A stretch of 64,000 nt of DNA from Myxococcota bacterium. Lineage in GTDB: Bacteria > Myxococcota_A > UBA9160 > UBA4427. Position 1 is the first letter of the stretch. Each line of letters starts with the position of its first letter. The stretch covers positions 1,088,001 to 1,152,000 of the forward strand of contig OZ252299.1 in NCBI GenBank assembly GCA_965250285.1, in the 5' to 3' direction. Of the stretch, positions 42,962-46,922 are shown piece after piece. A program made the position numbers and the translations under genes. The notes beneath the pieces were generated by a model, which saw only the letters and a list, made by a program, of their open reading frames with translations, was not told where the DNA came from and did no database searches.

Positions 42962-45616
42962 ATGGCGTTGCCGCCGGATCTGGATCCGGTCGAGACCGAG
43001 GAGTGGCTCGATGCCCTCGACTCGGTCTTCGAGCGGGAAGGCATCGAACGAGCCCACTATCTCGTCGGCCGGCTCGTGCGCCGCGCGCGTCGCAAGGGTG
43101 CGTATCTGCCCTACAGCGCGACGACGGCCTACGTGAATACGATTCACGAGAGCCGTCAGAAGCGCAGTCCCGGCAACCACGAGCTCGAGCGGCGACTTCG
43201 CTCGATCGTGCGGTGGAACGCGATGGCGATGGTCGTGCAGGCGAACCGCCTCGATCCGTCGCTCGGTGGCCACATCTCGAGCTACGCCTCGGCGGCGACG
43301 CTCTACGACGTCGGCTTCAACCATTTCTTCCATGCACCGTCCCAGGATCACGGCGGCGACCTCGTGTACTTCCAGGGGCATGCGTCCCCCGGCGTGTACG
43401 CGCGCGCCTTCCTCGAGGGGCGGATCAGCGAAGAGCAGCTGATGCACTTCCGCCGTGAGGTCGAGGCCGGCGGCTTGTCGTCGTATCCGCATCCGCGGCT
43501 GATGCCCGACTTCTGGCAGTTTCCGACCGTCTCGATGGGGCTCGGCCCGCTGACCGCGCTGTATCAGGCGCGCTTCATGAAGTACCTCGAAGACCGCGGG
43601 ATCCAGCAGACGGCCGGGCGAAAGGTGTGGGGGTTCCTCGGCGATGGCGAGTGCGACGAGCCCGAGACGCTCGGCTCGATCTCGCTCGCAGGGCGCGAGA
43701 AGCTCGACAATCTGATCTTCGTCGTGAACTGCAATCTGCAGCGGCTCGACGGGCCGGTGCGCGGCAACGGCAAGATCATCCAGGAGCTCGAGGGCATCTT
43801 CCGCGGCGCCGGGTGGAACGTGATCAAGGTCGTGTGGGGCAGCTACTGGGATCCACTGCTCGCCAAGGACACGACCGGGGTGCTGCGCAAGCGCATGGAA
43901 GAGGCCGTCGACGGCGAGTACCAGGCGTACCAGGTGCGAGGCGGCGAGTACACGCGCGAGCACTTCTTCGGCAAGTACCCCGAGCTGCGCGAGATGGTCG
44001 CGCACATGAGCGGGGACGACATCTGGCGGCTGAACCGGGGCGGTCACGATCCGCACAAGGTCTACGCGGCCTACGCCGAAGCGGCGGCCCACACCGGTCA
44101 GCCGACGGTGATTCTCGCCAAGACCGTCAAGGGCTACGGCCTCGGTGAAGCGGGCGAGGGCATGAACATCTCGCACCAGCAGCACGACATGCACGACGAG
44201 GCGCTCAAGGCTTTCCGCGATCGCTTCAAGATCCCGGTCAGCGACGACGACATCGCCGAAGCGCCCTTCTACCAGCCGCCGCCCGACAGCCCCGAGATCG
44301 AGTACCTGCACGAGCGTCGCCGCGCGCTCGGTGGCTACGTGCCCGCTCGAAGACGCCAGGCCGAGCCACTCGAAGTGCCCGAGCTCGAGGCCTTCCAGTC
44401 GCTGATCGAAGGGACGGGCGAACGCGAGGTGTCGACGACGATGGCGATCGTGCGTCTGCTCCAGCTGCTGACGCGCGACAAGACGATCGGTCGCAACATC
44501 GTGCCGATCGTGCCCGACGAGTCGCGCACTTTCGGCATGGAGGGGATGTTCCGCCGTCTCGGCATCTACTCGTCGGTCGGTCAGCTCTACGAGCCCGTCG
44601 ACTCGGATCAGGTCGCCTACTACAAGGAGAGCAAGGACGGCCAGATCCTCCAGGAGGGCATCAACGAGGCAGGCGCGATGGCGTCTTGGATCGCGGCCGG
44701 CACCGCGTACTCGAATCACGGCGTCAACATGGTGCCGTTCTACATCTACTACTCGATGTTCGGCTTCCAGCGCATCGGCGACCTCGCTTGGCTGGCCGGC
44801 GACGCCCAGGCGCGCGGGTTCCTGCTCGGCGGGACGTCCGGTCGCACGACGCTGAACGGCGAGGGGCTGCAGCACCAGGACGGCCACAGTCAGGTGCAGG
44901 CGGCGCTGATCCCCAGCTGCATCGCGTACGACCCCGCCTATGCGTACGAGTTGGCGGTGATCGTGCAGGACGGCCTGCGCCGCATGTACCGCGAGCAGGA
45001 GAGCATCTTCTACTACATCACCGTGATGAACGAGAAGTACGCGCAGCCCGAGATGCCCGAAGGCGTCGAGCAGGGGATCCTGAGCGGCATGTACCCGCTG
45101 CAAGAAGGCGAGGGCGACGGGCCGCGCGTGCAGCTGCTCGGCTCGGGCACGATCCTGCGCGAGGTCATCGCCGCGGCCGAGATGCTGGCCCAGGATTTCG
45201 GCGTCGTGGCCGACGTCTGGAGCGTCACGAGCTTCACCGAGCTCGCCCGCGACGGACAGGATTGCGAGCGCACGAACCTGCTGAACCCCGAGGCCGAGCC
45301 CGAGCTCTCGTACGTCGAGCGCCAGCTCGCACGCCGCGATGGGCCGTGCGTGGCCGCGACCGACTACATCCGCGCCTATGCCGATCAGATTCGTCCCTTC
45401 GTCAAGCGGACGTACCGGGTGCTCGGCACCGACGGCTTCGGTCGCAGCGACACGCGCGAGAAGCTGCGTCGTTTCTTCGAGGTCGATCGGGCCTGGGTCT
45501 GCGTCGCAGCGCTGTCGGCGCTGGCCGACGACGGTCGCGTCGATCGCAGCCGGGTCGGCGAAGCGATCGCGAAGTACGGCCTCGACACGCACAAGCCGAG
45601 CCCGAGGACGAGCTGA
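42962..45616 (+). CDS. aceE: Pyruvate dehydrogenase E1, homodimeric type
   Basis: DPVETEEW, GGHISS, FPTVSMGLG, GDGECDE, LQRLDGPV and GEGLQH motifs. Confidence 0.97.
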   Translation: MALPPDLDPVETEEWLDALDSVFEREGIERAHYLVGRLVRRARRKGAYLPYSATTAYVNTIHESRQKRSPGNHELERRLRSIVRWNAMAMVVQANRLDPSLGGHISSYASAATLYDVGFNHFFHAPSQDHGGDLVYFQGHASPGVYARAFLEGRISEEQLMHFRREVEAGGLSSYPHPRLMPDFWQFPTVSMGLGPLTALYQARFMKYLEDRGIQQTAGRKVWGFLGDGECDEPETLGSISLAGREKLDNLIFVVNCNLQRLDGPVRGNGKIIQELEGIFRGAGWNVIKVVWGSYWDPLLAKDTTGVLRKRMEEAVDGEYQAYQVRGGEYTREHFFGKYPELREMVAHMSGDDIWRLNRGGHDPHKVYAAYAEAAAHTGQPTVILAKTVKGYGLGEAGEGMNISHQQHDMHDEALKAFRDRFKIPVSDDDIAEAPFYQPPPDSPEIEYLHERRRALGGYVPARRRQAEPLEVPELEAFQSLIEGTGEREVSTTMAIVRLLQLLTRDKTIGRNIVPIVPDESRTFGMEGMFRRLGIYSSVGQLYEPVDSDQVAYYKESKDGQILQEGINEAGAMASWIAAGTAYSNHGVNMVPFYIYYSMFGFQRIGDLAWLAGDAQARGFLLGGTSGRTTLNGEGLQHQDGHSQVQAALIPSCIAYDPAYAYELAVIVQDGLRRMYREQESIFYYITVMNEKYAQPEMPEGVEQGILSGMYPLQEGEGDGPRVQLLGSGTILREVIAAAEMLAQDFGVVADVWSVTSFTELARDGQDCERTNLLNPEAEPELSYVERQLARRDGPCVAATDYIRAYADQIRPFVKRTYRVLGTDGFGRSDTREKLRRFFEVDRAWVCVAALSALADDGRVDRSRVGEAIAKYGLDTHKPSPRTS

Positions 45617-45625
45617 GTCGTGAGC

Positions 45626-45738
45626 ATGAGCCACGGACACGCGTGGGGGCTGAACCGATGAGCCGCGAGACCGAGGTCCGTGCGCGGGCCCGTCGACTGA
45701 TCGAGGTCGCCCGTCTGTCGTGGCGGAGGCGGGGGTGA
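45626..45738 (+). other. Two chained mini-ORFs (45626-45661 and 45658-45738) coupled into the aceF-like start
   Basis: ATGA and TGATG overlaps; the second begins with a near-copy of the aceF 5' end (MSRETEVR versus MSREIEVR). Confidence 0.5.
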
Positions 45739-46922
45739 TGAGCCGCGAGATCGAGGTCCGCGTGCCCGACATCGGTGACTTCGAGGCGGTCGACGTCGTC
45801 GAGATCCTCGTCGCGCCCGGCGACCGGGTCGCCATCGAAGACCCGCTGGTCAGTCTCGAGAGCGACAAGGCGACGATGGAAGTGCCGAGCCCGGTCGCGG
45901 GCGAAGTGCGTGCGGTCAAGGTCGCGCTCGGTGATGCGGTGAGCGAAGGCTCGCTGCTCGTCGTCGTCGCGGGGAGCGAAGCGGCCGAGCCGGCGCCGGC
46001 CGAAGCGGTGGCCGCGCCGCCGCCCGCCCCGATCGAGCCGAGCCTCGAGTCGAGCGAGGCGACCGCGCCGGCAGCGTCTTCGCCCGCGTCTCCGCCGCTC
46101 GCGCGCTTCGCGCACCCTGCGCCGGCTGAGCCGATGGCTCCGGCCCCGGGCGTCGACCGTCCCGTTCGGTCGCACGCAGGGCCAGGGGTGCGGCGCTTCG
46201 CGCGCGAGCTGGGCGTCGACCTGGCGGGCGTCGAGGGCAGCGGCCCGCACGGCCGCGTGCTCGAAGGCGATCTCAAGCACCACGTGCGCTCGACCTTCGA
46301 ATCGGGCGGGGCCCGCGGCGGAGCGGCCATCGCGGGCTACGAGCGCAGCGCCGACGTCACCGACCTCGAAGCGTGGCGCAGGCGCATTCCGACCCCGAAA
46401 GGTGAAACCGCGCCGCCGACGGCGGCCGTGGTGTTGAAGGCGGCGATCGCCGCACTGCGGGCCTTCCCCGAGCTCGGCGGGGTCGAGGAGGGGCGGCCTC
46501 TGGTCGTGGCGGTCGACGGCGCCGCGGTCGGGGGCACGACGCAGCCCGCCCTCGTCGCGCAGGCCGATCTGCTCGGTGTTCGCGAGCTCGCGCAGGCGCT
46601 GGATACGCCGGCCGAGACGGCCGCCGGGATCGATCCCGTGTTTCGGCTGACGACCGACGAGGGGCGCGGCGGACGGCGCCTGCAGCCGGTGCGGGGCGCG
46701 CGCGAACGCTTCGCGCTCGCGGTGGGGCCCGTCGAGGTCGTGCCGCACTGGACGGGCTCGGCCGACGACGCCATCGAGCCCGACTCGACCGCGGGCTTCG
46801 AGCCGAGGCTCTCGATCCCGATCGCCGTCGATGTGGCCCCCGACGTCGCGCCCGAGCTCGCCGATCGGTTCCTCGACCACTGGGCCGAGATCCTCTCGGC
46901 CCCCGCAAGGCTGCTGCTCTAG
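45738..46922 (+). CDS. AceF/E2-like lipoyl-domain protein with degenerate acyltransferase domain
   Basis: LESDKATMEVPS lipoyl motif; binding domain VRRFARELGVDL..GSGPHGRV; no DHRxxDG. Confidence 0.85.
   Translation: MSREIEVRVPDIGDFEAVDVVEILVAPGDRVAIEDPLVSLESDKATMEVPSPVAGEVRAVKVALGDAVSEGSLLVVVAGSEAAEPAPAEAVAAPPPAPIEPSLESSEATAPAASSPASPPLARFAHPAPAEPMAPAPGVDRPVRSHAGPGVRRFARELGVDLAGVEGSGPHGRVLEGDLKHHVRSTFESGGARGGAAIAGYERSADVTDLEAWRRRIPTPKGETAPPTAAVVLKAAIAALRAFPELGGVEEGRPLVVAVDGAAVGGTTQPALVAQADLLGVRELAQALDTPAETAAGIDPVFRLTTDEGRGGRRLQPVRGARERFALAVGPVEVVPHWTGSADDAIEPDSTAGFEPRLSIPIAVDVAPDVAPELADRFLDHWAEILSAPARLLL

Follow-up and report, generated by a model that had tools for sequence, protein, structure and literature searches.

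An aceE-linked AceF predicted to lack acyltransferase activity, and a PdhC-type E2 that may act for it, in a family of Myxococcota

The window analysed here is a stretch of 64,000 nucleotides from a Myxococcota bacterium (contig OZ252299.1, positions 1,088,001 to 1,152,000 of the forward strand; assembly GCA_965250285.1), whose genome, G000, is one contig and 95% complete. It contains a pyruvate dehydrogenase (PDH) locus in which the E1 gene, aceE, is followed by an aceF gene for an E2 subunit predicted to be acyltransferase-dead. aceE (42962..45616, plus strand) encodes a homodimeric pyruvate dehydrogenase E1 of 884 amino acids, which scores 1484 bits with TIGR00759 (cut-off 860) and below the cut-off with TIGR03186, and is the sole copy in the genome. 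The aceF gene (45738..46922, plus strand) encodes a protein of 394 amino acids (P0001, called dead AceF below for this prediction) in a frame open from an ATG start to the stop; an alternative upstream GTG start is possible at 45720. The order aceE-aceF is common to G000 and to relatives with an intact aceF, and by synteny 45738-46922 corresponds to the aceF of the family.

Dead AceF has the features of an AceF-type protein, namely a lipoyl domain with its acceptor lysine, a domain for peripheral-subunit binding, and a predicted E2 core fold. The lipoyl domain (45738..45977, plus strand; PF00364, E 1.5e-18) contains Lys44 in an SDKA motif (codon 45867-45869), and the binding domain (E3_binding in Pfam) is encoded at 46173..46289 on the same strand (PF02817, E 1.2e-13). 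Both had been named in the original prediction, which was made from the sequence of this locus, and both are confirmed by the domain matches. This binding domain belongs to the AceF type; in E. coli, that type binds either E1 or E3. Residues H146, P149, R152, R156, L158, R173, V183 and R184 of the domain are spaced like the E. coli residues for E1/E3 contact and dimer formation that are named in an excerpt of PMC10849603 and were mapped here by spacing; dead AceF likely keeps AceE-type binding residues. The remainder is a trimmed E2 core of 195 amino acids (46335..46919, plus strand), recognised by alignment and predicted fold, without the N-terminal elbow and helix H1. It ends in the C-terminal knob (residues 389-394; 46902..46919, plus strand), the trimer-trimer contact of E2 cores. 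The core landmarks ADVTDLEAWR, KAAIAALRAFP and RF...ILSAPARLLL, listed earlier, are all present.

The catalytic-domain model PF00198 gives dead AceF only 12.6 bits (cut-off 23). In an alignment with 19 intact AceF-type proteins of relatives, Ala367-Pro368-Asp369 (46836..46844, plus strand) replaces the catalytic Asp-His-Arg. The reported absence of DHRxxDG therefore holds; the aligned register lies two residues past the one first proposed, and neither contains a His. A relocated catalytic His was considered and rejected, as no conserved His exists elsewhere in the core: the only two, at 337 and 381, are Arg in four other dead members and Leu in P0006, respectively. Loss of the T(I/L)S(N/S) motif, also claimed, is correct for the motif and not for its chemistry, because Thr305 stands at the Ser site and the hydroxyl of the transition-state residue remains; across the six dead sequences this site is Thr in three and His in three. 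Similarly, the E2 had been called intact, which fits the open frame and not the core, from which about 39, 10 and 8 residues have been deleted in frame relative to intact relatives. The deletion of about 39 residues removes the elbow and H1, which an excerpt of PMC8421416 describes as the lipoyl-docking site, with Arg407 docking the lipoyl domain. By alignment, the core is without the catalytic base and also without the surface on which the substrate docks, and the protein would be inactive as an acyltransferase. An AlphaFold2 model built on a 5-row alignment (pLDDT 75.9) matched E2 cores with a Foldseek E of 2e-10 and Z of 19-20; against E. coli E2 (4n72_A) it gave Z 19.4 and a root-mean-square deviation of 2.8 over 182 aligned residues, starting at residue 426. 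The core is thus predicted to keep the E2 fold.

Two intact E2 cores occur elsewhere in G000, one PdhC-type and one SucB-type. The PdhC-type E2, at G000:C1:3101985-3103256, fits the PdhC model TIGR01349 best (409 bits, cut-off 445), and its gene lies between acyl-CoA dehydrogenase genes and what is presumably an nqr-like operon, with no adjoining E1 genes. The SucB-like gene precedes lipB and its product scores best, below the cut-off, with the actinobacterial model TIGR02927. No second aceE or aceF was found in the genome, so the proposed check for a second canonical aceF or pdhC yielded the PdhC-type gene only; the idea that aceF is complemented elsewhere is borne out to the extent that this orphan E2 is intact. 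SucA is present, with no evident E2 partner besides the SucB-type protein; fusion of an E2 domain to SucA, the arrangement of OdhA, was considered and rejected, since SucA has no PF00198 match. At the far end of the window, lpdA (60125..61540, plus strand) encodes the only E3 above the cut-off in G000. It is followed by a gene at 61586..62593 (plus strand) which we take from its motifs, without a family scan, to be a lipA-like lipoyl synthase gene. In many relatives pdhC, lpdA and lipA form a single run, and in genus g14 the PdhC-type gene stands first in it. At L005:5770-10020, G000 also has an acoAB-like E1 pair followed by a protein with a lipoyl domain, a binding domain and an alpha/beta-hydrolase domain and no E2 core; this protein may borrow the PdhC core too.

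An electron relay was among the earlier suggestions. In such a relay, Lpd and NADH would reduce the lipoyl arm, which would pass electrons to an AhpD- or Ohr-type protein, as described for DlaT of M. tuberculosis in an excerpt of PMC12995895. Candidate partners exist, with 12 CMD/AhpD-family and 2 OsmC-family matches in G000. However, none of these 14 falls within the window, and among 14 control genomes the CMD/AhpD family matches in 13 and the OsmC family in 12. DlaT, moreover, is an active enzyme whose E1 route still requires acyl transfer to CoA, and a relay leaves the linkage to aceE unexplained. With no positive support found for it, the relay is a very improbable explanation of the gene, although it could be a side role of dead AceF.

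Among the other features near aceF, the intergenic gap contains a 29-nt stretch (45657..45685, plus strand) that imperfectly repeats the start of aceF; it is absent in G001, a genome of the same genus, and is probably incidental. ABC transporter genes, presumably tungstate-type by their motifs, lie 3' of aceF at 47036-49429; similar genes follow aceF in G010, G012 and G031.

The dead form is also found in G001, P0003, P0004, P0005 and P0006, that is, in five sequences besides that of the window, so it is not a sequencing accident of one genome. P0003, P0004 and P0005 came from a protein search in which 7,997 candidates were scored, and P0006 from a search of 1.84 billion representatives that gave 3 proteins at E<=1e-10. 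Among the matches listed from 185,579 species genomes there was one close dead-AceF locus (L058, 64%), which was not counted as a member, and those listed from the JGI metagenomes contained no further one. All dead members have open frames, none seen has a truncated core, core identities range over 51-76% and loop lengths differ. In a tree of the lipoyl and binding domains, with bootstrap support not fully settled and no eukaryotic rows, the four dead sequences that have both domains form one clade within the family's aceF group; a full-length AceF tree was set aside because it placed the dead clade on a branch 2.3 long. Two AceF-type proteins outside this clade, P0008 and P0014, also lack the elbow/H1 segment. 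The catalytic His is Pro in P0008, and P0014 keeps DHR and not DG; both look, from their sequences, like earlier stages of the same erosion.

The PdhC-type genes of the family show a matching pattern. A total of 68 family genomes were searched and 46 were scored for both genes, the other 22 being omitted because one gene was cut, unfetched or unfound. Both genes are intact in 26 genomes, G003 among them; PdhC is dead in 18, including G017, AceF is dead in 2, and both are dead in none. G001 was scored by hand, as its contig ends just past the motif, and G031, G035 and G083, which have frameshifts, were scored by motif. G032 (L028, L237) has two aceE-aceF sets, one nesting in another genus, and three lpd genes, which suggests transfer or an assembly of mixed origin. 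With the core excluded from the tree, PdhC death requires 5 changes, at least 3 of them forced, and this repeated loss is more telling than the zero count of double-dead genomes. The lipoyl Lys and the binding domain are kept in all 19 dead PdhC proteins, most of which lack H1 as well as the His. Their commonest change, as in dead AceF, is His to Pro (14/19, for example L230, L232 and L228), which needs one base change. Within the fetched stretches no E1 alpha or beta gene adjoins any PdhC-type gene, and an E1 alpha match at E<=1e-62 was obtained in only 29 of the 68 genomes of the family. Outside the family the PdhC type is scarce, with 3/91 other genomes of the order having it vs 28/54 within the family. 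G004, G007, G021 and G027 have an aceF of another clade with its own lpd and no PdhC-type match. The SucB-type E2 of G001 (L039), near a contig end, reads D-P-R at the motif by one base change, its core being otherwise 95% identical; if this is real, PdhC would be the only active E2 in G001, but it may be an assembly error.

Selection on the locus was estimated from the ratio of nonsynonymous to synonymous substitution rates (dN/dS) between G000 and G001, with a Nei-Gojobori script on this single pair at very high GC content in third codon positions, so that the values are rough. The ratio is 0.055 for the lipoyl domain and 0.058 for the binding domain, at dS of 0.7-1.1, and it is 0.41 for the linker, 0.115 for AceE and 0.32 for the dead core (170 codons, bootstrap 0.21-0.49; identity 66%). 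Intact PdhC cores give 0.09-0.12 and some dead PdhC cores 0.6-0.7. Selection is strong on the lipoyl and E1/E3-binding domains and relaxed on the core. The gene is therefore not in neutral decay, since the two domains stand near 0.06 and the core interval excludes 1. These data bear on the view that aceF is a pseudogene and that pyruvate is handled by a ferredoxin oxidoreductase. G000 does have two 2-oxoacid:acceptor oxidoreductase alpha-like genes (L328, L329), one of them above the TIGR03710 cut-off, and the dead form is as rare as the 3 strong matches indicate. Nevertheless, the dN/dS comparison largely refutes this view, and the conserved AceE and the frames that stay open over such divergent cores also oppose it, leaving it barely credible. 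Decay, as first suspected, is not supported for the lipoyl and binding domains and is supported only in part for the core; family relatives have the normal DHR that was expected under neutral decay, but the decay is not neutral.

Docking of the cores was also modelled. A model of two PdhC cores with the dead core scored 0.66 and the best control 0.01; in calibration, the docking mark was reached by 116/157 solved pairs and 2/215 mismatched pairs. The runs share at least 97% of contacts, with partner pLDDT of at least 80. In the confident modelled interface, which involves one PdhC copy, the C-terminal knob of each chain sits in the pocket of the other, and the excerpt of PMC10849603 identifies knob-in-pocket as the trimer-trimer contact. 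Dead cores of both types retain this knob, which is unchanged in 5/5 dead AceF sequences that extend to it. Predicted interface residues are invariant in the dead clade at 14/18 positions vs 78/177 elsewhere (p 0.006, the residues not being independent), and dead PdhC keeps 84% of the consensus at 9 interface positions vs 43% at 94 others; buried positions are uncontrolled in these counts, and self-docking would use the same surface. Physical docking of dead AceF on the PdhC core falls a little short of probable on this modelling.

Two other explanations concern the core directly. In the first, only the lipoyl and binding domains matter, and the core erodes slowly as a passenger that need only stay folded and soluble, on the way to a free lipoyl carrier. 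The relaxed ratio of the dead core, the still higher ratios of some dead PdhC cores and the variable loops agree with this; the exclusion of 1 from the interval, the lack of truncated members, the invariant knob and the preferential retention of interface positions do not, and we regard it as quite unlikely. In the second, AceE and the dead E2 form a small particle of their own through knob contacts between dead cores, and the arm is unloaded in trans by any active core, possibly the SucB-type one beside lipB. In normal AceF the knob residues have a part in self-assembly too, and the intact SucB-type core is 27% identical to the dead core, as close as the PdhC core (26%). SucA, however, has no other evident partner than this SucB-type protein, whose short Phe-containing tail appears, unaligned, to resemble an actinobacterial insertion that blocks trimer-trimer contacts according to an excerpt of 10.1101/2020.07.24.212647. 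A separate particle also leaves the matching pattern in the PdhC-type genes unexplained, and it is unlikely.

Judged from sequence, dead AceF is probably a non-catalytic, AceE-binding lipoyl subunit that passes acetyl to a PdhC-type core encoded elsewhere. LipB and LipA would lipoylate Lys44. AceE would bind the binding domain and reductively acetylate the lipoyl domain of dead AceF. The PdhC core would then unload the acetyl group and make acetyl-CoA, and the arm would be reoxidised by Lpd, probably bound to the PdhC binding domain. In this way the family would run a hybrid complex built with two types of E2. A single active core would suffice, so that either could go dead. E2 cores can accept foreign acetyl-lipoyl arms, and E1 recognises its cognate lipoyl domain; AceE therefore likely needs the lipoyl and binding domains of dead AceF and not its active site, and this lipoyl domain could not be dropped. 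The E1 specificity, together with the lack of domain specificity in E3, is stated in an excerpt of a review (PMC6270654).

Several observations weigh against this proposal. Because these binding residues can serve either E1 or E3 in E. coli, their conservation is no proof of E1 specificity. The dead and PdhC cores are only 26% identical. The docking score may reflect solved E2 cores that the model had memorised; the runs used self-built alignments in a job unlike the calibration, neither self-docking nor the SucB-type core was among their controls, and the dead core was set on one PdhC copy and not in the trimer slot. About 0.8 double-dead genomes would be expected by chance, so observing none is weak and not significant alone, and the two AceF-dead genomes represent one event. 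G018 (94% complete) has aceE-aceF with no adjoining lpd, one Lpd and no PdhC-type match found, which argues against a general requirement for PdhC in recruiting Lpd. The 2-oxoacid:acceptor oxidoreductase could bypass PDH.

Dead AceF can be compared with the eukaryotic E3BP (protein X). Both have the E2 domain layout with an inactive core (inactivity being predicted from sequence for dead AceF), and the split of E1 and E3 recruitment over two E2 paralogues, described for E3BP in an excerpt of PMC10156792, would probably apply to dead AceF as well. In contrast to E3BP, dead AceF derives independently from a bacterial aceF and is not a duplicate of an active E2; it likely carries E1 and not E3, lacks the elbow and H1, and is predicted to dock by a trimer-trimer knob. 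The excerpt of PMC10156792 also treats E3BP as a eukaryotic gene, states that bacteria use a shared binding domain, and gives the reason for E3BP inactivity as not known. Dead AceF is not an E3BP orthologue, being syntenic with the family's aceF genes and nested among them in a tree without eukaryotic rows. It is likely a mirror image of E3BP, and the E3BP-like dead copies of the family are likely the PdhC-type genes of relatives. The scaffold or acetyl shuttle of the original prediction thus agrees with the selected domains and the retained knob, with the direction likely reversed. With gammaproteobacterial-type AceF (E. coli 4n72/7b9k, Azotobacter 1eaa), dead AceF shares the position after aceE, the lipoyl domain, the binding-domain residues, the predicted core fold and the C-terminal knob; it differs in lacking the catalytic His, in the three in-frame deletions and in having no cognate lpd in the operon. 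The actinobacterial hybrid of PDH and 2-oxoglutarate dehydrogenase (C. glutamicum AceF with OdhA; M. tuberculosis DlaT) is similar, in the excerpts available, in that the lipoyl arm of one protein is served by the acyltransferase domain of another. It is unlike the present case in that its lipoyl-bearing E2 has activity and E1o carries the second acyltransferase as a fusion, whereas SucA of G000 has no such domain match.

In the open literature searched, which covered few subscription journals and no supplements, no dead bacterial AceF or mixed AceF/PdhC core was found; what is new here is a system of two E2s within one family, with either of them dead in some genomes. More tentatively, and less than probably, the family's PDH may combine two unrelated E2s in one knob-joined lattice, in which AceF brings AceE and the orphan PdhC brings Lpd. 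E3BP-like dead PdhC would then have arisen at least three times and E1-binding dead AceF once here, as a replicated rerun of the origin of E3BP, reversible in direction, with the both-active starting state still alive. The genomes with both genes active, with PdhC dead and with AceF dead are natural replicates whose PDH could be reassembled from four or five pure proteins, and they bear on the reasons for which an E2 loses its catalysis and on the way in which a dead core remains attached. For annotation, neither an aceE followed by an aceF without the motif nor a pdhC that is an orphan is enough to conclude that PDH is broken.

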